64,000 nt of DNA from Bryobacterales bacterium. GTDB lineage: Bacteria > Acidobacteriota > Terriglobia > Bryobacterales > UBA6623. The position numbers were made by a program, and so were the translations under genes. The notes under the pieces were generated by a model. The model did no database searches. It was not told where the DNA came from and saw only the letters and a program-made list of their open reading frames with translations. Shown in pieces: positions 10,635 through 57,804 of the stretch. The DNA lies in contig OZ252030.1 in the NCBI GenBank assembly GCA_965247305.1, positions 189,262 to 253,261 on the forward strand, read 5' to 3'. The number at the start of each line of letters is the position of its first letter. Positions within the stretch are counted from its first letter, which is position 1.

Positions 10635-11480
10635 ATGAAATCAATATTAGTTGTAAGCGCCGTCGCGCTCACGCTCACAGCAGGCAGCGTCACAGGCCTC
10701 GCGCAATCGGATTTCGAACCCGCCCGCTTGGCCAACGGAAAACCCGACTTCAACGGGATTTGGCAGGCGCTGAACACCGCCAACTACGACCTCGAACGGC
10801 ATATGGCAAGGGCGTCGCTGCAGCTGCGCGAAGGCCCCCATAGCGCGCTTCCCGACGTCCCGCTGTTGCGGCTTGGAGCAGTTGGCGCCGTACCTGGCGG
10901 CATGGGTGTTGTCGAGGGCGGCAAGATCCCGTACAACCCCGAAGCCGCCGCCAAGCGCGAAGAAAACCGCAAGAATTGGATTGACCGCGACCCCGAAATT
11001 AAGTGCTACATGCCCGGCGTGCCGCGCGCGACGTACATGCCTTTTCCGTTTCAGATTTTTCACAACGAGAATTCGATTTTCGTTGCCTATGAGTTTGCCG
11101 GCGCGACGAGAGAAATCTATCTCAAAGACGTTGGACCTGCCGAGACGGATGCCTGGATGGGCCAATCCGTGGGCCATTGGGATGGCGACACGCTGGTGGT
11201 CGACGTTTCGGGTTTGCACGACGGCTCATGGCTCGATCGCTCGGGCACGCATCACAGCTACAAGATGAAGGTGACTGAGCGCTACACGCTCGTCGGCGAG
11301 AACCACATTCAATACGAAGCAACCATCGAAGACCCTGAAGTCTTCACAAGGCCCTGGAAAATCAGCATGCCGCTCTACCGCCGCATGGAAACAGATGCGC
11401 GGCTGATGGACTTCAAATGCGTTGAGTTCGTCGAAGAACTCATCTATGGCGAGTATCGCCGCAAACCGTTGGAGCGATAG
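10635..11480 (+). CDS. uncharacterised secreted protein, short diverged member of paralog family (P1)
   Basis: Signal peptide MKSILVVSAVALTLTAGSVTGLA. It shares the blocks GKPDFNGIW, KCYMPGVP, MGQSVGHWDGDTLVVDVSG, EDPEVFTRPW and FKCVEF with the next three genes. Confidence 0.8.
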   Translation: MKSILVVSAVALTLTAGSVTGLAQSDFEPARLANGKPDFNGIWQALNTANYDLERHMARASLQLREGPHSALPDVPLLRLGAVGAVPGGMGVVEGGKIPYNPEAAAKREENRKNWIDRDPEIKCYMPGVPRATYMPFPFQIFHNENSIFVAYEFAGATREIYLKDVGPAETDAWMGQSVGHWDGDTLVVDVSGLHDGSWLDRSGTHHSYKMKVTERYTLVGENHIQYEATIEDPEVFTRPWKISMPLYRRMETDARLMDFKCVEFVEELIYGEYRRKPLER

Positions 11481-11496
11481 GCAAGGGAGGACCCTT

Positions 11497-12579
11497 ATGA
11501 CCGCTCGATTGTTGGCCGTTGTAGGCGTTCTCACGATCGGCGTCGGCACGTTGGTAGGCGCGGATATCCCGCGCACGGCCGACGGCCACCCGGACCTCTC
11601 CGGCACCTACAACGTCGCCACCCGCACTCCACTGGAGCGACCTAAAGCCCTCGGAGACAAGCTTACCCTCACGAACGAAGAGGCCCAAGCGATCGCCAGA
11701 AAAGAGGCGGAGCTGGCGGCAAAAGCCGACGTCGCTTCGAATCCTGATCGGTCCGCGCCGAAAGTTGGCGGATCGGGCTTCGCGGGCGAGATTGAAGTCC
11801 CCGAGCTTGATTTCGCGGCCGGCGAAGTGGGCGGATACAACTGGTTTTGGATCGACCGCGGCGAGGGCGCCTTCCAGATTGATGGAACCTGGCGCACCTC
11901 GATCATCACCGACCCGCCCAACGGACGCAGGCCTGCGCTCACGGACAAGGCCAAGCAGCGAGCCGCGGCACGCGCCAAGCTCTTCAAACCAAATACGGGC
12001 ACAGCGTGGTGGATCAAAGACGGGCTTGACCCCGGCCCATACGACAACCCGGAGATGCGGCCGCTCGCCGAGCGCTGCTTGCTTGGCTTCGGCTCCACCA
12101 GCGGCCCGCCAATGCTGCCGGTGCTCTACAACAACCTCAAGCGAATCGTGCAGACCAAAGACAACATCATGATTCTTGTGGAAATGGTCCATGACGCGCG
12201 TATCGTTCGCATGAATGCCGAACACGCCCCGGACGACGTCCGCAAGTGGATGGGGGACTCCGTCGGCCATTGGGATGGCGACACCCTCGTCGTCGACACG
12301 ACGAACTTTACCGACCAGCCCGCGCTAGGGAGCGCCTCGAAAAACCTACACGTCGTTGAGCGGTTCACGCGCATCGATGCCGATACGCTGATCTACAAAT
12401 TCACGGTCGAAGATCCAACCGTCTGGGCCGCACCCTGGACCGGCGAGTACGTCTGGCCAACAAGCGACCAGCGGGTATACGAGTACGCCTGCCACGAGGG
12501 GAACTACTCATTCCAGGGCATCCTGCGCGGTGCGAGGGTTCTCGAATCCGACGTGGTCGGCAAGACCGACGACGAATGA
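11497..12579 (+). CDS. uncharacterised secreted protein, paralog P2
   Basis: ATG at 11497 preceded by AAGGGAGG. Signal peptide MTARLLAVVGVLTIGVGTLVGA. Motifs DGHPDLSGTY, ERCLLGFGSTSGPPMLPVLYNN, VGHWDGDTLVVDTTNF and YEYACHEGNYS. Confidence 0.85.
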   Translation: MTARLLAVVGVLTIGVGTLVGADIPRTADGHPDLSGTYNVATRTPLERPKALGDKLTLTNEEAQAIARKEAELAAKADVASNPDRSAPKVGGSGFAGEIEVPELDFAAGEVGGYNWFWIDRGEGAFQIDGTWRTSIITDPPNGRRPALTDKAKQRAAARAKLFKPNTGTAWWIKDGLDPGPYDNPEMRPLAERCLLGFGSTSGPPMLPVLYNNLKRIVQTKDNIMILVEMVHDARIVRMNAEHAPDDVRKWMGDSVGHWDGDTLVVDTTNFTDQPALGSASKNLHVVERFTRIDADTLIYKFTVEDPTVWAAPWTGEYVWPTSDQRVYEYACHEGNYSFQGILRGARVLESDVVGKTDDE

Positions 12580-12589
12580 GGAGAGTCGC

Positions 12590-13645
12590 ATGATCTATAG
12601 ATTTGCCGTTGTCCAATTCGCGATCGCATTCGTCGCCGGCACACTCATAGCCGCCGACAATCCGCGCCAGGCCGACGGTCACCCAGACCTCTCCGGCACT
12701 TACGACATCGCCAGTCTTACACCGCTACAGAGGCCCGCGAAATTCGGCAACAGACTCACCCTGTCCGACGAAGAAGCGGCCGAAATCGCGCAGGCGGAAG
12801 TTGAGTTCATGAAAAAGAGCGACGCCGCATCGAACCCCGAAAGGGGAGCGCCGCCCGCGGGCGGAGACGGAACCACAGGCGGAAAAGGGAACGTCGGCGG
12901 CTACAACTCGCTGTGGTACGGCCGCGGAACAGGCGCGGTGAAAGTGGACGGCCAGTGGCGTACTTCGATCATCATCGACCCGCCCAACGGACAGCGCCCG
13001 CCGATGACCGTCGCTGCACAAAAAAGGGCGGCCGAGCGTGCCCGGCGTTCAAAGAAAAACAACGGCAAAGCCTGGTGGATCGACGCCAAACTCGACCCCG
13101 GCCCCTATGATGACCCCGAGCTACGCCCACTAGCCGAGCGCTGCCTGTTAGGCTTCGGCTCGACCGGTGGCCCGCCAATTTTGCCCGTCCTCTACAACAA
13201 CCTAAAGCGGGTCATTCAGACCAAAAACCACATCATGATCATGGTTGAGATGGTCCACGACGCACGCATCATTCGCATGAACGCCGAGCACGCAGCGCCC
13301 GACGTCCGCAAGTGGCTAGGCGACTCTGTGGGCCATTGGGAAGGCGACACGCTTGTCGTCGATACCACCAACTTCAGCGACACACCGGCTCTCTCGAATG
13401 CATCGCGGAATCTGCACGTGGTCGAACGCTTCAAGCGCATCGACAACGACACGTTGCTCTACAAATTCACGATTGAAGATCCCACCGTATGGACCGCGCC
13501 ATGGACAGGCGAATACACTTGGCCCGCTAGCGATCAGCGCCTCTACGAGTACGCCTGCCACGAGGGCAACTACTCGTTCAGAGGAATTCTCAACGGTGCA
13601 AGAGTTCTAGAGGCGGATGCGCTGGCCAAGACAGACGGCGAATAA
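12590..13645 (+). CDS. uncharacterised secreted protein, paralog P3
   Basis: ATG at 12590 preceded by GAGGAG. Signal peptide MIYRFAVVQFAIAFVAGTLIAA. Same motif set as P2 and P4. Confidence 0.85.
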   Translation: MIYRFAVVQFAIAFVAGTLIAADNPRQADGHPDLSGTYDIASLTPLQRPAKFGNRLTLSDEEAAEIAQAEVEFMKKSDAASNPERGAPPAGGDGTTGGKGNVGGYNSLWYGRGTGAVKVDGQWRTSIIIDPPNGQRPPMTVAAQKRAAERARRSKKNNGKAWWIDAKLDPGPYDDPELRPLAERCLLGFGSTGGPPILPVLYNNLKRVIQTKNHIMIMVEMVHDARIIRMNAEHAAPDVRKWLGDSVGHWEGDTLVVDTTNFSDTPALSNASRNLHVVERFKRIDNDTLLYKFTIEDPTVWTAPWTGEYTWPASDQRLYEYACHEGNYSFRGILNGARVLEADALAKTDGE

Positions 13646-13708
13646 CGGTTTATGATGATGTTGACTACCGTTGCAGCCGGCTGGATACAGGGCTGAAGGA
13701 GATACGCT

Positions 13709-14788
13709 ATGCAGCGTCGCACTTCCGTAATTCTTGCTGTTCTTGTGATCATCTCGGGTATCGGCGCGCTGGCTGCCGCGGATATTCCGCGTACGGTGGA
13801 CGGACACCCGGATCTCTCGGGCACGTACGACATTGCCACCTTGACACCGCTACAGCGCCCGAAGCAGTACGGAGATAAGCTGACGCTGACCGACGAAGAG
13901 GCGCAACAGATCGCCCGCAAAGAGGCGGAGCGCAATGCAAGCCGCAATGCAGCGACGGACCCGAACCGCGAAGCCCCACCGGCGGGCGGAGACGGCTCAG
14001 AAGGCGCGGCTGGCAACGTCGGCGGCTACAACACATTCTGGATCGACCGCGGCAACGGCGCATTCAAAGTCGACGGCACTTGGCGCACCTCGATCATCGT
14101 CGACCCGACGAACGGGCAGCGGCCCGCGATGACTGCCGCGGCCAAGAAGCGAGCTAAAGAGCGCGCTGAGATCTTCCGCTCGAATGTCGGCAAGAACATG
14201 AACAAGGGCAGGGCGTGGTGGATCGACGAGAAACTTCCTGTAGGCCCCTACGATGATCCGGAACTACGCCCGCTGGCTGAGCGCTGCCTGCTGGGGTTCG
14301 GCTCGACAAGCGGCCCTCCGATGCTTCCGGTTCTCTATAACAATCTCAAACGCATCGTGCAGACCAAAGATCACGTTATGATCTTCGTCGAGATGGTTCA
14401 CGACGCGCGCATCGTTCGCATGAATGCCGAACACGCCCCGTCGGATGTCCGCAAATGGATGGGCGATTCGGTTGGACACTGGGATGGCGACACGCTCGTA
14501 GTCGACACAACCAACTTTGACGACAGGCCCGCACTGAATGGAGCGACGAAAGACCTGCATGTCGTAGAGCGCTTTACGCGCATCGACAAAGACACGTTGC
14601 TCTACCGCTTCACCGTCGAAGACCCCAACGTTTGGACCAAGCCTTGGACTGGCGAGTACACCTGGCCGGCAAGCGAAAACCGTGTTTATGAATACGCCTG
14701 TCACGAGGGCAACTATTCGTTCGGCGGAATCCTACGCGGCGCGCGCATTCTCGAATCTGACATCCTCGGTAAATCCGACGACGAATAG
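13709..14788 (+). CDS. uncharacterised secreted protein, paralog P4
   Basis: ATG preceded by GAAGGAG. Signal peptide MQRRTSVILAVLVIISGIGALAA. The C-terminal half is nearly identical in protein sequence to P2. Confidence 0.85.
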   Translation: MQRRTSVILAVLVIISGIGALAAADIPRTVDGHPDLSGTYDIATLTPLQRPKQYGDKLTLTDEEAQQIARKEAERNASRNAATDPNREAPPAGGDGSEGAAGNVGGYNTFWIDRGNGAFKVDGTWRTSIIVDPTNGQRPAMTAAAKKRAKERAEIFRSNVGKNMNKGRAWWIDEKLPVGPYDDPELRPLAERCLLGFGSTSGPPMLPVLYNNLKRIVQTKDHVMIFVEMVHDARIVRMNAEHAPSDVRKWMGDSVGHWDGDTLVVDTTNFDDRPALNGATKDLHVVERFTRIDKDTLLYRFTVEDPNVWTKPWTGEYTWPASENRVYEYACHEGNYSFGGILRGARILESDILGKSDDE

Positions 14789-36064: not shown

Positions 36065-36085
36065 GGGCGTAGCAAGCTACGCCCC
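36065..36085. repeat. apex hairpin GGGCGTAGC-AA-GCTACGCCCC (flanking duplication, copy 1 of 3)
   Basis: Perfect 9-bp stem immediately abutting the IS left end. Confidence 0.85.
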
Positions 36086-36149
36086 CTGGAGTTTGGCTGT
36101 TCAAAGAGGGTTGAAGTTTGGGGTAGGGTGCGGAAATAGGGGATTGGCG

Positions 36150-37670
36150 TTAGCCGGAAGCGTAGATTGCTGCAGGCGGAGCGCCTCTTGGGAGTTTCTG
36201 CAGCTTCGTGTTGGATTGCGAAGTGTTCCGCAAGCCGCAGAAATGTTGCCGCTGCACGCCGTCCGCCCAAAGCTCGGCCCGCAGGTGGCTGATCAGCCGT
36301 TGCGTGGTGAGCCGTTGCGGCTGCGAGCGGCGTCGCCAGTGCGGTCGCGGCAAGGCGTCGTCCACGCCCTGTTGGCGGCTCCAACTCGCGCCCGCCAACA
36401 GCAGTAGCGCATACACCGCCGTCATAAATTGAGGGACCCGCTCGACCGCGTCCGGCTGCCGCACCTGCGCCTGTCCGACTCCCAACAGCGTCTTCTGCTC
36501 ACGGAAGTTGACCTCGATCTCCCAGCGCCAAACGTACTGCCGCACGATCTGCTCCAGCCCCAAACTCGGATCGCTGACAATCAAATACGCCGGCTTGCGA
36601 TACAGCACCTTCGAGCCCGCCCGCGGCCGATAACCCAACGGTGCGATCACCACCAAACGCAAGTCCCGCTTGCCTCCCGCCGGCCGCCAACGCAGCGGCG
36701 CGAGCGTCTTCACTTTGAACTGGTGCAGGCTGCCGGCGGCAAAAACCTCGACCGTTTGCCACGGCACGTTGTCGTCCTGGCGGAGTTGCTCGGGCGTCGG
36801 CGCGCGTTCGCCGTAACAACGCCTGCGGCCTTTGCCGGGCTGCTCGAGGGGCAGATGATACAGCTTGGCGTCGGAACGAATGCGGCCGATCAACGTCACC
36901 TCGGCGGGCAACGATCCGAACACCGTGCGGTTGGTGTAAGCGCCATCAACGACGAGGTGCAAGGCTCTGTCAGCGCCTCCGGGATCGGCGTTCATGGCCT
37001 CGCGCAAGCGCGCGATGTGCCTGGCGGCGAGGGCCGTCAAGCTGCACTTGCGAGCCTCGCGCCGGTACTGTTTCCAAACCTCGTCCGTGGCCTTCTTCGA
37101 CGGTCGGCGCGGAGTCGGCGCGTGTTCCAAGCCGATCGGAATGAGTCGCGCCGGCTGCTGCCGCTCGCTGGGAGGCAGTGCTGCCGAGAATTGCAAGAAG
37201 CGCTGCGCGAGAATCAAGTTGGCCTGAAACTTGGGTCCAAGCGGATCGCGCCGCCAACTCACGCCGGGCGTTTTGAGACTCGACTTGGCGAGCAGTGTAT
37301 CGTCGATGGCGACGACCAAGGGAGCCTCGGGCGGCAAGCGAGCGAGCACCTCGCGGCGCGAGGCATCGAGCAGGCGTTGCGGCTCGACGCGTTGTTGCGA
37401 GAACAGGCGGTAGCCGGCGCTCCAGTCCTGAAAGCTCTCGCCGGAGGCATGTAGCAGGCCGGTGATGGTGGAGCGGCCGAGGCAGACGGCGGCACCGAGA
37501 GCGAGGCGGGTGAGGTGGTCGTTCACGCTTTGTCGGGCGTGGGGGTTGAGGCCTTTGGCGAAGAGTCGGGAGAAGGTGTCGACGACTCGATCGGGAGTTT
37601 TTTTTTCAACTCGACGGGCGGAGGTTGCAAACGATTGAGCACGAGTTGGGAGCGGTCGAGCAGGATCCAT
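36150..37670 (-). CDS. DDE transposase frame of IS copy A (YREK-type, IS4/IS701/IS1634-like)
   Basis: D in VVAIDDT, D in LVVDGAY, and Y-x2-R-x3-E-x6-K in YVWRWEIEVNFREQK. In this copy the frame stays open upstream across the A9 run, so the 5' 48 codons overlap orfA. Confidence 0.85.
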   Translation of the reverse strand: MDPARPLPTRAQSFATSARRVEKKTPDRVVDTFSRLFAKGLNPHARQSVNDHLTRLALGAAVCLGRSTITGLLHASGESFQDWSAGYRLFSQQRVEPQRLLDASRREVLARLPPEAPLVVAIDDTLLAKSSLKTPGVSWRRDPLGPKFQANLILAQRFLQFSAALPPSERQQPARLIPIGLEHAPTPRRPSKKATDEVWKQYRREARKCSLTALAARHIARLREAMNADPGGADRALHLVVDGAYTNRTVFGSLPAEVTLIGRIRSDAKLYHLPLEQPGKGRRRCYGERAPTPEQLRQDDNVPWQTVEVFAAGSLHQFKVKTLAPLRWRPAGGKRDLRLVVIAPLGYRPRAGSKVLYRKPAYLIVSDPSLGLEQIVRQYVWRWEIEVNFREQKTLLGVGQAQVRQPDAVERVPQFMTAVYALLLLAGASWSRQQGVDDALPRPHWRRRSQPQRLTTQRLISHLRAELWADGVQRQHFCGLRNTSQSNTKLQKLPRGAPPAAIYASG

Positions 37671-37786
37671 TCGAGCTGTTCGCCGGGCTGGAAGTCGAGC
37701 ATCTGAGCGCTGGCGGAGGGGAAGTTGACGTAGAACTGTTGGGAAGCCTTGCGCTTGATCAACTGCAGTTTGGTGGGGAAGGACAT
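37523..37786 (-). CDS. IS orfA, AbrB/MazE/SpoVT-like small protein (copy A, 87 aa)
   Basis: AAGGAG 7 nt upstream of the ATG. MSFPTKLQLIKRKASQQFYVNFPSASAQMLDFQPGEQLEWILLDRSQLVLNRL fits a swapped-hairpin beta-alpha-beta pattern. The call is by pattern only. Confidence 0.6.
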   Translation of the reverse strand: MSFPTKLQLIKRKASQQFYVNFPSASAQMLDFQPGEQLEWILLDRSQLVLNRLQPPPVELKKKLPIESSTPSPDSSPKASTPTPDKA

Positions 37787-37941
37787 GAGGTCTCCTTGGA
37801 AATGAATCTAGTTACACAACAAGCTAAACAACTAGATACAAGAATACCTCAAAATGTTTTGAGACACAAGCATTCTCAGATCCCTCACAACTCAAGAACG
37901 TGCTTACCGCGCGTCCCATCTAGTGAAAGGCCAAACTCCAG

Positions 37942-37962
37942 GGGGCGTAGCTTGCTACGCCC
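37942..37962. repeat. hairpin GGGGCGTAGC-TT-GCTACGCCC between IS copies A and B (copy 2 of 3)
   Basis: Same stem as 36065-36085 with the 2-nt loop complemented. Confidence 0.85.
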
Positions 37963-39817
37963 CTGGAGTTTGGCTGTTCAAAGAGGGTTGAAGTTTGGGG
38001 TAGGGTGCGGAAATAGGGGATTGGCGTTAGCCGGAAGCGTAGATTGCTGCAGGCGGAGCGCCTCTTGGGAGTTTCTGCAGCTTCGTGTTGGATTGCGAAG
38101 TGTTCCGCAAGCCGCAGAAATGTTGCCGCTGCACGCCGTCCGCCCAAAGCTCGGCCCGCAGGTGGCTGATCAGCCGTTGCGTGGTGAGCCGTTGCGGCTG
38201 CGAGCGGCGTCGCCAGTGCGGTCGCGGCAAGGCGTCGTCCACGCCCTGTTGGCGGCTCCAACTCGCGCCCGCCAACAGCAGTAGCGCATACACCGCCGTC
38301 ATAAATTGAGGGACCCGCTCGACCGCGTCCGGCTGCCGCACCTGCGCCTGTCCGACTCCCAACAGCGTCTTCTGCTCACGGAAGTTGACCTCGATCTCCC
38401 AGCGCCAAACGTACTGCCGCACGATCTGCTCCAGCCCCAAACTCGGATCGCTGACAATCAAATACGCCGGCTTGCGATACAGCACCTTCGAGCCCGCCCG
38501 CGGCCGATAACCCAACGGTGCGATCACCACCAAACGCAAGTCCCGCTTGCCTCCCGCCGGCCGCCAACGCAGCGGCGCGAGCGTCTTCACTTTGAACTGG
38601 TGCAGGCTGCCGGCGGCAAAAACCTCGACCGTTTGCCACGGCACGTTGTCGTCCTGGCGGAGTTGCTCGGGCGTCGGCGCGCGTTCGCCGTAACAACGCC
38701 TGCGGCCTTTGCCGGGCTGCTCGAGGGGCAGATGATACAGCTTGGCGTCGGAACGAATGCGGCCGATCAACGTCACCTCGGCGGGCAACGATCCGAACAC
38801 CGTGCGGTTGGTGTAAGCGCCATCAACGACGAGGTGCAAGGCTCTGTCAGCGCCTCCGGGATCGGCGTTCATGGCCTCGCGCAAGCGCGCGATGTGCCTG
38901 GCGGCGAGGGCCGTCAAGCTGCACTTGCGAGCCTCGCGCCGGTACTGTTTCCAAACCTCGTCCGTGGCCTTCTTCGACGGTCGGCGCGGAGTCGGCGCGT
39001 GTTCCAAGCCGATCGGAATGAGTCGCGCCGGCTGCTGCCGCTCGCTGGGAGGCAGCGCTGCCGAGAATTGCAAGAAGCGCTGCGCGAGAATCAAGTTGGC
39101 CTGAAACTTGGGTCCAAGCGGATCGCGCCGCCAACTCACGCCGGGCGTTTTGAGACTCGACTTGGCGAGCAGTGTATCGTCGATGGCGACGACCAAGGGA
39201 GCCTCGGGCGGCAAGCGAGCGAGCACCTCGCGGCGCGAGGCATCGAGCAGGCGTTGCGGCTCGACGCGTTGTTGCGAGAACAGGCGGTAGCCGGCGCTCC
39301 AGTCCTGAAAGCTCTCGCCGGAGGCATGTAGCAGGCCGGTGATGGTGGAGCGGCCGAGGCAGACGGCGGCACCGAGAGCGAGGCGGGTGAGGTGGTCGTT
39401 CACGCTTTGTCGGGCGTGGGGGTTGAGGCCTTTGGCGAAGAGTCGGGAGAAGGTGTCGACGACTCGATCGGGAGTTTTTTTTCAACTCGACGGGCGGAGG
39501 TTGCAAACGATTGAGCACGAGTTGGGAGCGGTCGAGCAGGATCCATTCGAGCTGTTCGCCGGGCTGGAAGTCGAGCATCTGAGCGCTGGCGGAGGGGAAG
39601 TTGACGTAGAACTGTTGGGAAGCCTTGCGCTTGATCAACTGCAGTTTGGTGGGGAAGGACATGAGGTCTCCTTGGAAATGAATCTAGTTACACAACAAGC
39701 TAAACAACTAGATACAAGAATACCTCAAAATGTTTTGAGACACAAGCATTCTCAGATCCCAGACAACTCAAGAACGTGCTTACCGCGCGTCCCATCTAGT
39801 GAAAGGCCAAACTCCAG
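37963..39817 (-). mobile_element. IS4-superfamily insertion sequence, copy B (1855 bp), head-to-tail with copy A
   Basis: Same termini as copy A. It differs from A by A8 vs A9 (39475-39482), one synonymous base (39056) and a 2-nt change at 39771-39772 in the noncoding 5' region. Confidence 0.92.
38027..39403 (-). CDS. DDE transposase frame of IS copy B
   Basis: 458-aa ORF identical in protein sequence to the corresponding part of copy A. The orfA ATG lies at 39662. Confidence 0.85.
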   Translation of the reverse strand: MNDHLTRLALGAAVCLGRSTITGLLHASGESFQDWSAGYRLFSQQRVEPQRLLDASRREVLARLPPEAPLVVAIDDTLLAKSSLKTPGVSWRRDPLGPKFQANLILAQRFLQFSAALPPSERQQPARLIPIGLEHAPTPRRPSKKATDEVWKQYRREARKCSLTALAARHIARLREAMNADPGGADRALHLVVDGAYTNRTVFGSLPAEVTLIGRIRSDAKLYHLPLEQPGKGRRRCYGERAPTPEQLRQDDNVPWQTVEVFAAGSLHQFKVKTLAPLRWRPAGGKRDLRLVVIAPLGYRPRAGSKVLYRKPAYLIVSDPSLGLEQIVRQYVWRWEIEVNFREQKTLLGVGQAQVRQPDAVERVPQFMTAVYALLLLAGASWSRQQGVDDALPRPHWRRRSQPQRLTTQRLISHLRAELWADGVQRQHFCGLRNTSQSNTKLQKLPRGAPPAAIYASG

Positions 39818-39836
39818 GGGCGTAGCTTGCTACGCC
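39818..39836. repeat. hairpin GGGCGTAGC-TT-GCTACGCC right of IS copy B (copy 3 of 3)
   Basis: Directly abuts the IS right end. Confidence 0.85.
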
Positions 39837-44022: not shown

Positions 44023-44256
44023 CTGGAGTTTGGCCTGCGCTGGCCTTTCCCGCTCGTTCGGCGGGGCAGGGGGAACTCCCGGCGCGTCGTCGACTTCGAA
44101 TCCCAGGGTTGCACCCCGGGCGAATACAAACGTCACCCCTCCGGGGTTCAGATTCTGTGGCTTCGCGCACAGTGCTACGCGCAATCCGAGGCGTCAGTGA
44201 TTCGATTATGGACTCATTCTTCAAGCCTTACAGCCTCCAATAAAGCCACACTCCAG
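44023..44256. mobile_element. 234-bp MITE carrying the terminal inverted repeats of the IS
   Basis: Starts CTGGAGTTTGGCC and ends GCCACACTCCAG. There is no coding capacity. It is flanked by duplicated hairpin GAAGCGTGGACTGYCGTCCAYGCCTCG (43974-44000 and 44258-44284). Confidence 0.7.
44059..44170. repeat. ~112-bp repeat (family 2), copy inside the MITE
   Basis: CGGCGGGGCAGGGGGAA...GGGTTGCACCC...CACCCCTCCGGGGTTCAG...GGCTTCGCGCAC aligns with 61576-61688 at roughly 85% identity by eye. Confidence 0.8.
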
Positions 44257-55824: not shown

Positions 55825-55858
55825 AAACGAGGCGTGGACGGAAGTCCACGCCTCGTTT
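55825..55858. repeat. terminator-like hairpin AAACGAGGCGTGGAC-GGAA-GTCCACGCCTCGTTT, left flank of IS copy C
   Basis: Perfect 15-bp stem with A-tract/T-tract flanks, abutting the IS end. It is duplicated at 57771-57804. Confidence 0.85.
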
Positions 55859-57770
55859 CTGGAGTTTGGCTGTTCAAAGAGGGTTGAAGTTTGGGGTAGG
55901 GTGCGGAAATAGGGGATTGGCGTTAGCCGGAAGCGTAGATTGCTGCAGGCGGAGCGCCTCTTGGGAGTTTCTGCAGCTTCGTGTTGGATTGCGAAGTGTT
56001 CCGCAAGCCGCAGAAATGTTGCCGCTGCACGCCGTCCGCCCAAAGCTCGGCCCGCAGGTGGCTGATCAGCCGTTGCGTGGTGAGCCGTTGCGGCTGCGAG
56101 CGGCGTCGCCAGTGCGGTCGCGGCAAGGCGTCGTCCACGCCCTGTTGGCGGCTCCAACTCGCGCCCGCCAACAGCAGTAGCGCATACACCGCCGTCATAA
56201 ATTGAGGGACCCGCTCGACCGCGTCCGGCTGCCGCACCTGCGCCTGTCCGACTCCCAACAGCGTCTTCTGCTCACGGAAGTTGACCTCGATCTCCCAGCG
56301 CCAAACGTACTGCCGCACGATCTGCTCCAGCCCCAAACTCGGATCGCTGACAATCAAATACGCCGGCTTGCGATACAGCACCTTCGAGCCCGCCCGCGGC
56401 CGATAACCCAACGGTGCGATCACCACCAAACGCAAGTCCCGCTTGCCTCCCGCCGGCCGCCAACGCAGCGGCGCGATCACCACCAAACGCAAGTCCCGCT
56501 TGCCTCCCGCCGGCCGCCAACGCAGCGGCGCGAGCGTCTTCACTTTGAACTGGTGCAGGCTGCCGGCGGCAAAAACCTCGACCGTTTGCCACGGCACGTT
56601 GTCGTCCTGGCGGAGTTGCTCGGGCGTCGGCGCGCGTTCGCCGTAACAACGCCTGCGGCCTTTGCCAGGCTGCTCGAGGGGCAGATGATATAGCTTGGCG
56701 TCGGAACGAATGCGGCCGATCAACGTCACCTCGGCGGGCAACGATCCGAACACCGTGCGGTTGGTGTAAGCGCCATCAACGACGAGGTGCAAGGCTCTGT
56801 CAGCGCCTCCGGGATCGGCGTTCATGGCCTCGCGCAAGCGCGCGATGTGCCTGGCGGCGAGGGCCGTCAAGCTGCACTTGCGAGCCTCGCGCCGGTACTG
56901 TTTCCAAACCTCGTCCGTGGCCTTCTTCGACGGTCGGCGCGGAGTCGGCGCGTGTTCCAAGCCGATCGGAATGAGTCGCGCCGGCTGCTGCCGCTCGCTG
57001 GGAGGCAGCGCTGCCGAGAACTGCAAGAAGCGCTGCGCGAGAATCAAGTTGGCCTGAAACTTGGGTCCAAGCGGATCGCGCCGCCAACTCACGCCGGGCG
57101 TTTTGAGACTCGACTTGGCGAGCAGTGTATCGTCGATGGCGACGACCAAGGGAGCCTCGGGCGGCAAGCGAGCGAGCACCTCGCGGCGCGAGGCATCGAG
57201 CAGGCGTTGCGGCTCGACGCGTTGTTGCGAGAACAGGCGGTAGCCGGCGCTCCAGTCCTGAAAGCTCTCGCCGGAGGCATGTAGCAGGCCGGTGATGGTG
57301 GAGCGGCCGAGGCAGACGGCGGCGCCGAGAGCGAGGCGGGTGAGGTGGTCGTTCACGCTTTGTCGGGCGTGGGGGTTGAGGCCTTTGGCGAAGAGTCGGG
57401 AGAAGGTGTCGACGACTCGATCGGGAGTTTTTTTTCAACTCGACGGGCGGAGGTTGCAAACGATTGAGCACGAGTTGGGAGCGGTCGAGCAGGATCCATT
57501 CGAGCTGTTCGCCGGGCTGGAAGTCGAGCATCTGAGCGCTGGCGGAGGGGAAGTTGACGTAGAACTGTTGGGAAGCCTTGCGCTTGATCAACTGCAGTTT
57601 GGTGGGGAAGGACATGAGGTCTCCTTGGAAATGAATCTAGTTACACAACAAGCTAAACAACTAGATACAAGAATACCTCAAAATGTTTTGAGACACAAGC
57701 ATTCTCAGATCCCTCACAACTCAAGAACGTGCTTACCGCGCGTCCCATCTAGTGAAAGGCCAAACTCCAG
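55859..57770 (-). mobile_element. IS4-superfamily insertion sequence, copy C (1912 bp = 1855 + 57-bp internal duplication)
   Basis: Same 12-bp termini as the other copies. A8 run at 57428-57435. In-frame tandem duplication at 56416-56472 / 56473-56529. Confidence 0.92.
55923..57356 (-). CDS. DDE transposase frame of IS copy C (19-aa internal duplication)
   Basis: 477-aa ORF identical to copy B apart from the duplicated RWRPAGGKRDLRLVVIAPL. The orfA ATG lies at 57615. Confidence 0.8.
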   Translation of the reverse strand: MNDHLTRLALGAAVCLGRSTITGLLHASGESFQDWSAGYRLFSQQRVEPQRLLDASRREVLARLPPEAPLVVAIDDTLLAKSSLKTPGVSWRRDPLGPKFQANLILAQRFLQFSAALPPSERQQPARLIPIGLEHAPTPRRPSKKATDEVWKQYRREARKCSLTALAARHIARLREAMNADPGGADRALHLVVDGAYTNRTVFGSLPAEVTLIGRIRSDAKLYHLPLEQPGKGRRRCYGERAPTPEQLRQDDNVPWQTVEVFAAGSLHQFKVKTLAPLRWRPAGGKRDLRLVVIAPLRWRPAGGKRDLRLVVIAPLGYRPRAGSKVLYRKPAYLIVSDPSLGLEQIVRQYVWRWEIEVNFREQKTLLGVGQAQVRQPDAVERVPQFMTAVYALLLLAGASWSRQQGVDDALPRPHWRRRSQPQRLTTQRLISHLRAELWADGVQRQHFCGLRNTSQSNTKLQKLPRGAPPAAIYASG

Positions 57771-57804
57771 AACGAGGCGAGGACGGAAGTCCACGCCTCG
57801 TTTT
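57771..57804. repeat. second copy of the terminator-like hairpin, right flank of IS copy C
   Basis: AACGAGGCGAGGAC-GGAA-GTCCACGCCTCGTTTT has the same loop orientation, with one stem mismatch. It lies 57 nt downstream of the sulfatase-like gene stop. Confidence 0.85.

Follow-up and report, generated by a model that had tools for sequence, protein, structure and literature searches.

Recoding at A-rich sites is a classic means of transposase-dosage control in the insertion sequences (ISs) IS1, IS3, IS5 and IS630. IS3 elements prefer the site A_AAA_AAG and IS1 uses A_AAA_AAC (PMC4066793). Nostoc IS copies have been described that are identical save for an A8–A10 run (An denoting a run of n A's), as have Deinococcus radiodurans IS elements with A8/A9 runs (PMC1088944). 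A classical IS701 element is 1400–1550 bp long, has one open reading frame (ORF), uses no frameshift and generates a 4-bp target duplication; for the IS4 family, of which IS701 was once part, the absence of frameshifting is a hallmark (PMC2266710). Here we analyze an IS701-subgroup element present in three copies in a 64,000-nucleotide stretch of a Bryobacterales genome (assembly GCA_965247305.1, contig OZ252030.1, positions 189,262 to 253,261 of the forward strand), which we call the window. We consider it probable, at roughly 80%, that this element consists of two overlapping frames, orfA and orfB, joined by programmed slippage on an A run, with the OrfAB fusion as the active transposase. 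The initial annotation of the window regarded such recoding as not known, as far as it was aware, in IS4/IS701-type elements. Our reading of the literature agrees: frameshift absence is named as a hallmark (PMC2266710), and no report linking IS701, IS4 or DDE_5 with frameshifting or slippage was found in the literature searched, ISfinder lying outside that search.

The window has a GC content of 58.5% and contains exactly three homopolymers of at least 8 bases, T9 at 37598–37606 and T8 at 39475–39482 and 57428–57435, in full agreement with the tract positions and lengths first reported. All three share the context cgggag-Tn-caactc. Because all three occupy one and the same position within a repeated element, and because the run is conserved in distant relatives (below), their presence cannot be ascribed to chance. 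The element copies and their parts are as follows.

36086–37941, minus strand: IS copy A, 1856 bp, with an A9 run and the DDE frame at −1 (the canonical register).
37963–39817, minus strand: IS copy B, 1855 bp, with an A8 run and the DDE frame at +1, head-to-tail with copy A.
55859–57770, minus strand: IS copy C, 1912 bp, with an A8 run and the DDE frame at +1.
37786–37523, minus strand: orfA of copy A, 87 aa.
37598–37606, minus strand: candidate slippery run of copy A, A9 on the coding strand, read AAA AAA AAA in the orfA frame.
36150–37670, minus strand: DDE (orfB) frame of copy A, a 506-aa ORF that is open through the run at −1.
39475–39482, minus strand: A8 run of copy B, with the orfA read-through ORF at 38847–39662 (271 aa) and the DDE ORF at 38027–39403, called from a GTG.
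57428–57435, minus strand: A8 run of copy C, with the orfA read-through ORF at 56800–57615 (271 aa) and the DDE ORF at 55923–57356.
37942–37962, no strand: hairpin GGGGCGTAGCTTGCTACGCCC between copies B and A, a duplicated target that is also found at 36065–36085 (left of A) and 39818–39836 (right of B).

Besides run length, the three copies are only a few substitutions apart, copy C additionally carrying a 57-nt tandem duplication. Terminal inverted repeats, CTGGAGTTTGGC(C) / GCCAAACTCCAG, match perfectly over 12–13 bp at both ends of all copies.

The coding strand of copy A reads GAG TTG AAA AAA AAA CTC across the junction. The A9 run contains an in-phase A_AAA_AAA heptamer, the DDE frame lies at −1, and orfA ends 24 codons past the run, one codon more than first counted. 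A Shine-Dalgarno sequence, AAGGAG (37797–37792), stands 5 nt ahead of the orfA ATG; no Shine-Dalgarno sequence is found in copy A at the GTG where gene callers begin orfB. Copies B and C instead have the DDE frame at +1, with a TGA in that frame directly 5′ of the run, and orfA continues as Arg/Pro-rich ORFs of 271 aa. Rechecking the frames bore out the original description of both the 87-aa orfA of the A9 copy and the read-through of the A8 copies. When 37786–37598 is joined to 37598–36150, copy A gives a conceptual OrfAB of 545 aa. An A10 run in copy A would yield the same 545 aa uninterrupted, with the junction VELKKKTPDRVV, and an A7 run in copies B and C would yield 544 and 563 aa, respectively, with the junction VELKKTPDRVV, as expected from the earlier statement that only A7 or A10 fuses the frames. 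It also holds that no copy encodes a contiguous OrfAB; the frames are joined only through the A run, and a ribosomal or transcriptional slip would be required to make the fusion.

To place this junction in its family, we searched 5.8 billion proteins with the conceptual fusion and recovered more than 3,400 relatives. Among the best 120 protein matches, 11 are contiguous proteins of 537–556 aa, most with ...LKKKT... at the junction; the remainder are ORFs of 430–531 aa that start at or past the run, those of about 506 aa reading ...EKKT... through it in the DDE frame. An OrfA-domain profile matched at least 7,999 proteins, the best 120 of which are all stand-alone and 64–94 aa long. When 50%-identity cluster representatives were considered, 810 matched at E ≤ 1e-30, and the best 150 comprise 149 without the OrfA part and one fused protein. 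Metagenome contigs were also scanned with OrfA-domain patterns. This gave more than 570 loci, from which the best 80, with 43–52% amino-acid identity to the query, were taken; one 5′-truncated locus was omitted from the frame tests. A tract-length survey of homologous elements had been proposed at the outset; 77 of the 80 metagenomic loci keep an A8/A9 run and have the DDE frame at −1. The junction types are distributed as follows.

NNN AAA AAA AAA C (A9, phase 0), the same as copy A: 35 loci, DDE at −1.
NTA AAA AAA ACT (A8, phase 2): 38 loci, DDE at −1.
Other A8/A9 variants: a few loci, DDE at −1.
A10 (L074): one locus, fused.
AAAAAGGGGG (L083): one locus, DDE at −1.
A8 with DDE at +1, as in copies B and C: no loci.

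A Verrucomicrobiota genome copy with 42% identity carries A9 too, and orfA measures 66–95 aa throughout the IS701 subgroup that contains this element. On this comparison, the unfused form is the one that is maintained in the family. Among the fused relatives, L074 and L097 have an A10 run, and P0056/L096 has no homopolymer, reading CCG AAA GAA GAG. The existence of these rare A10-fused and run-less relatives indicates that the fused protein is viable. Separately, at L083:886–895 the A run is replaced by AAAAAGGGGG (A5G5) with the DDE frame still at −1; this junction contains an A_AAG ribosomal slip site, and it resembles the heteropolymeric T5C5 slippage motif of Roseiflexus IS630.

Several features of these loci point to selection on the run itself. 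Lys codons elsewhere in the loci are 54% AAA and 46% AAG, and those at the junction are all AAA, with L083 as the sole exception. The 30-nt flanks of the run are only about 35% identical in pairwise comparison, no two of the 80 contexts are the same, and GC content spans 34–69%. Conservation of the run is thus at the nucleotide level. Over the 22 codons past the run, the −1 frame is free of stops in 78 of 78 loci (a stop occurs in the 0 frame in 60% and in the +1 frame in 31%), and in the same 78 loci the highest BLOSUM similarity past the run is that of the −1 frame. In several loci (NNT AAA AAA AAA C) a −1-frame TAA overlaps the 5′ end of the run, and in many the 0-frame orfA stop follows 6–15 nt past it (range 6 to 99 nt), so that the change of frame is confined to the run. 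Taken together, a pure-AAA run, a stop-free −1 frame and a frame change within the run are the signature of programmed recoding, not of decay. The base directly after the A run is a C in 79 of 84 junctions (the window and L002–L085), at differing codon positions in the two main junction types, which suggests a nucleotide-level constraint.

These comparisons bear directly on the alternative that the window copies are decayed pseudogenes of an ancestrally contiguous orfAB, with the homopolymer as a mutational hotspot and no programmed recoding. A8–A10 runs are hypermutable, which fits a frameshift hotspot, and contiguous proteins do exist among the best 120 matches, one of them lacking a junction homopolymer. 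The initial annotation had reasoned that the copies would be simply decayed if homologous elements elsewhere had one uninterrupted ORF and no homopolymer. Across the family the reverse was found, since 77 of 80 loci keep the run and one of the best 150 cluster representatives is fused; the exception is that run-less fused relatives do occur, if rarely (P0056/L096). Random decay would account neither for the exact −1 register and pure-AAA run of 77 of 80 divergent loci nor for a −1 frame that is stop-free in 78 of 78. Moreover, OrfA and OrfB are both under strong amino-acid conservation, 149 of the best 150 cluster representatives are unfused, and the near-identity of A9 copies at six sites indicates recent transposition of the unfused form. 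The comparative data bring the pseudogene explanation close to refutation, and we regard it as extremely improbable.

The domains encoded by the two frames are of different kinds. The orfB product passes the NCBIfam model NF049999 (transpos_IS701_3, IS701 family) with E = 1.4e-54 and 185.5 bits, the cut-off being 170, and matches Pfam DDE_5 with E = 2.6e-16. The NF049999 match begins at residue 36 of the 506-aa ORF, just past the run and 13 residues before the GTG codon, so the curated model covers the catalytic part alone. Three conserved acidic residues, D163, D281 and E425, are present and are taken as the putative DDE triad. There is no conserved start codon for orfB in the family.

The nature of OrfA is less immediately apparent. 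It has no Pfam or NCBIfam family match at E ≤ 1, AbrB/MazE models included. Its first 55 residues are nonetheless better conserved among relatives than any other portion of the protein, and 15 positions within residues 1–52 are invariant. An AlphaFold2 model built on a 54-sequence alignment (single-sequence prediction was poor) has a beta-beta-alpha-beta-beta arrangement (E6–11, E16–21, H24–30, E38–44, E47–52), with a pLDDT of 68–77 over residues 1–60. When this model was compared with the PDB using Foldseek, the best matches were almost all AbrB-fold proteins (MazE, SpoVT, AbrB, C56 of pSSVi, C68 of pSSVx and VapB), at weak E-values of 0.13–1.4. A profile search of PDB sequences with OrfA gave C56 of pSSVi at a weak E of 0.32, and some OrfA homologues are named MazE/PrlF antitoxin by JGI, which is the sole sequence-level hint of AbrB/MazE. 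We predict with moderate confidence that OrfA residues 1–55 form an AbrB/MazE/SpoVT-like DNA-binding domain. No report linking AbrB-type domains with transposases was found in the literature searched, and the GeneTack paper supplements mention neither this link nor one of IS701 or DDE_5 with frameshifting or slippage.

These observations suggest a model in which standard decoding would yield OrfA alone, which, by analogy with InsA of IS1 and OrfA of IS3, may bind the element ends and restrain transposition. A minority of expression events would slip by one base on the run. This could occur if the ribosome shifted −1 on the in-phase A_AAA_AAA or if RNA polymerase added one untemplated A, converting A9 to A10 in the transcript; in copy A, both routes would produce the same 545-aa OrfAB with the junction ...VELKKK-TPDRVV....

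Several considerations weigh against this model or parts of it. The analysis shows the frames, the run and its deep conservation, the open −1 frame and the domain identities; that slippage occurs is inferred from comparative anatomy, and its level, the machine that slips and a regulatory role for OrfA are likewise inferences. Selecting the best 80 of 570 loci and searching with fused queries may have introduced a slight bias into the tallies. The fold assigned to OrfA combines a moderate-confidence model with weak Foldseek E-values and the lack of a Pfam match. The direction of the frame change is strictly −1 in 78 of 78 unfused relatives, which counts against the transcriptional route that we favor below. 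Finally, 25 of 78 loci have a −1-frame start codon no more than 5 nt from the orfA stop, which is above chance by a rough estimate, so that some OrfB may be made separately through coupling.

This last point supports the alternative that OrfA and OrfB are separate proteins, OrfB being made by termination-reinitiation from a GTG overlapping the orfA stop, with no frameshift product. In copy A the orfA stop TGA does overlap a DDE-frame GTG (GTGA), and gene callers annotate genes of 87 aa and 458 aa with a 4-nt overlap. However, a start so close to the orfA stop is absent in 53 of 78 relatives, and the distance of that stop from the run varies from 6 to 99 nt. From the run onward, far upstream of such a start, the −1 frame is already open and conserved, and the NF049999 match likewise starts 13 residues before the GTG. 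In addition, the junction of the fused relatives falls exactly at the run. Coupling of this kind would be impossible in copies B and C because orfA reads on for 271 aa. We therefore hold independent translation of OrfB to be very unlikely, and return to slippage on the A run as the favored explanation.

Which machine would slip is a separate question. We place the odds of transcriptional slippage as the main route a little above even; ribosomal frameshifting is a realistic but less favored possibility, and comparable contributions of both are unlikely. The preference for the polymerase comes from the presence of runs of 8 or more A's throughout together with the lack of a conserved stimulatory RNA. 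No A7 or A6G site occurs among 79 loci. When 60 nt on each side of the run were folded in 85 loci, no excess stability was seen (mean z-score −0.39 downstream and −0.08 upstream; 9% of loci below −2 downstream; −0.7 for the window copy). An apparent stem in the A8 subgroup was rejected, since RNAalifold on 22 members gave −0.06 kcal/mol and no covariation. Rfam returned no frameshift element, only sub-threshold microRNA-like matches on the palindrome of inverted repeat, hairpin and inverted repeat at the A/B junction. IS1 is likewise without a stimulator, so its absence here is compatible with frameshifting as well. Both registers, −1 with A9 and +1 with A8, are found among copies of this element, although the A8 calls may be errors. 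The Nostoc copies that differ only by A8–A10 and the A8/A9 runs of Deinococcus radiodurans elements provide a precedent for the transcriptional route (PMC1088944). For the ribosome, on the other hand, there is an in-phase heptamer within every run, and L083 retains only an A_AAG-type site. The criterion that Antonov et al. used for transcriptional realignment is a non-conserved direction, and families of that type often show both directions (PMC3711429); by this criterion, the strictly −1 direction is a better fit to ribosomal frameshifting.

The A8 runs of copies B and C call for separate comment, because these copies are either mutated, off-register versions of the element or homopolymer miscalls. 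If real, A8 copies would be silent unless the polymerase dropped one A or added two, or an unlikely +1 ribosomal shift took place. Contigs of ENA assembly ERZ26167216 also contain this element, with A9 at five distinct insertion sites and A8 at one (L092). Nine distinct copies overall thus comprise six with A9, three with A8 and none with A10. A8 is found on two single-nucleotide polymorphism (SNP) backgrounds, alignment column 904 being G in B and C and A in L092, which means that A8 arose, or was miscalled, more than once. We also looked for a SNP that would mark A8 as a transposing lineage; none exists, as A8 sits on both backgrounds.

One explanation is that the 8/9 difference is not biological, all copies being A9 and in the canonical −1 register and the A8 calls in B and C being long-read homopolymer errors. 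The 5:1 ratio of A9 to A8 sites in ERZ26167216 is consistent with this, and the contig names of that assembly carry 4–24x coverage tags in a style that we take to be that of a long-read metagenome assembler. Occurrence on two SNP backgrounds fits recurrent miscalls as well as it fits recurrent mutation, zero A10 among nine copies is the pattern of deletion-biased error, and the +1 register is seen in none of the 80 distant relatives. Conversely, the window is closely packed with intact long ORFs, the largest of 923 aa, and indel errors are thus not general. The A8 copies are also richer in private changes than the A9 copies, which suggests older, decaying copies: C has four private SNPs in addition to its 57-nt duplication, a dinucleotide change is private to B, and L092 lacks a target duplication, whereas the A9 copies are near-identical at six sites. 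This contrast fits a picture in which A9 would be the active form and the A8 copies older and crippled. On balance, we find it doubtful that sequencing error accounts for the difference.

Three further observations concern individual copies. In copy C, the 57-nt tandem duplication (~56477–56590) is in frame within the DDE ORF and repeats 19 aa, RWRPAGGKRDLRLVVIAPL, between the conserved D281 and E425; it likely impairs this copy. L092 (ctg428696, A8) has different hairpins on its two sides and no target duplication, which points either to two copies having recombined or to a further event at that site. Finally, L003 and L004, from a Bryobacterales metagenome-assembled genome, show the same +1 register as B and C but with TTA followed by A9; we did not use them as evidence, because an extra indel in L004 and contig names that appear to be Flye-style make them unreliable.

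The insertion sites of the element are distinctive in their own right; like the predicted DNA-binding domain of OrfA, this feature did not figure in the initial annotation. Wherever a copy has kept intact flanks, it sits between direct repeats of an entire palindromic hairpin of 19–33 bp (seven independent sites; the window and L086–L090). For example, the hairpin GGCCCCGATCATCGGGGCC flanks L087 on both sides, and AAACGAGGCGTGGACGGAAGTCCACGCCTCGTTT flanks copy C (55825–55858 and 57771–57803). A long A6...T6 palindrome between convergent genes has the A/B pair at its apex. The targets resemble terminator hairpins, and the element seems to capture hairpin or cruciform targets, which would regenerate a terminator at each of its ends. 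Around the A–B pair the hairpin occurs three times (36065–36085, 37942–37962 and 39818–39836), and its two-base loop, read on the same strand, is AA once and TT twice, so that the loop of one duplicate is flipped. Hairpin-duplicating insertion may be a more unusual property than the recoding site, and it merits a study of its own.

At 44023–44256 there is a 234-bp element resembling a miniature inverted-repeat transposable element, whose termini are those of the IS (CTGGAGTTTGGCC ... GCCACACTCCAG), bordered on both sides by the near-identical hairpin GAAGCGTGGACTG(C/T)CGTCCA(T/C)GCCTCG. We regard this sequence as a probable non-autonomous deletion derivative mobilized by the IS transposase. 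Elsewhere in the window, on the plus strand at 11827–14542, three diverged tandem repeats of ~1.07–1.14 kb with 69–80% identity overlap ORFs at 11422–14788; these look like a tandem array of paralogous genes unrelated to the IS.

Combining these lines of evidence, we tentatively envisage, at somewhat less than even odds for the picture as a whole, a very large and widespread environmental branch of IS701, with a gene organization that would be new for IS4/IS701-type elements, in which an AbrB/MazE-type OrfA and a DDE_5 domain would be fused only by slippage, run lengths of 8, 9 or 10 would act as a heritable switch between attenuated and on states, and hairpin duplication would reflect an unusual mode of target capture. 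If the recoding proposal is true, it represents another independent origin of OrfA/OrfAB regulation, with a different, AbrB/MazE-like DNA-binding fold. The branch has thousands of members in soil, sediment and freshwater bacteria. There are consequences for annotation as well, since gene callers report two genes for such an element, one labeled 'hypothetical protein' or 'MazE antitoxin' and the other an 'IS701 family transposase' that is truncated at its N-terminus. The family also offers a natural series with which to separate ribosomal from transcriptional slippage, comprising A9 in phase 0, A8 in phase 2, A5G5, A10 fused and run-less fused junctions.

How, then, does this element compare with described systems? 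As in IS1 (InsA/InsAB′) and IS3 (OrfA/OrfAB), the ORFs overlap, the DDE domain lies at −1 and an in-phase, A-rich X_XXY_YYZ motif occupies the overlap; this applies to copy A and 77 of 80 relatives, and not to B and C. The overall design is also similar, with a small upstream protein that is predicted to bind DNA and a transposase that would exist only as a fusion, and, as in IS1, no stimulatory RNA is evident. Unlike in IS1 and IS3, the catalytic domain is of the IS701/DDE_5 type rather than that of IS1 or IS3 (rve), and the run has 8 or more A's instead of A_AAA_AAG (IS3) or A_AAA_AAC (IS1). The DNA-binding domains differ too, being zinc-finger/helix-turn-helix in IS1, helix-turn-helix in IS3 and, by prediction, AbrB/MazE-like here.

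The closest parallel on the transcriptional side is the set of slippage-dependent ISs described by Baranov et al. in 2005 (PMC1088944), which likewise have an A8–9 run conserved at the orfA/orfB junction among homologues; in the present family the run is A8 or A9 in 78 of 80 loci and in no case A7. As with the Nostoc A8–A10 copies, near-identical copies differ in run length and no RNA structure is needed. Those systems belong to other families, the text of the paper naming neither IS701 nor IS4, and the element described here differs from them in that its register is strictly −1 family-wide.

Finally, the element resembles the IS701 family in its DDE type, which scores above the NF049999 cut-off, and in its terminal inverted repeats. 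Plasmid-borne IS701 relatives with 24–26% identity match residues 90–545 only and are thus without OrfA. Relative to classical IS701, the element is longer (1855–1912 bp rather than 1400–1550 bp), duplicates hairpins of 19–33 bp rather than 4 bp of target, and carries orfA and a putative recoding site; in place of a single ORF, both the window copies and 78 of 80 relatives have two frames joined only via the A run.

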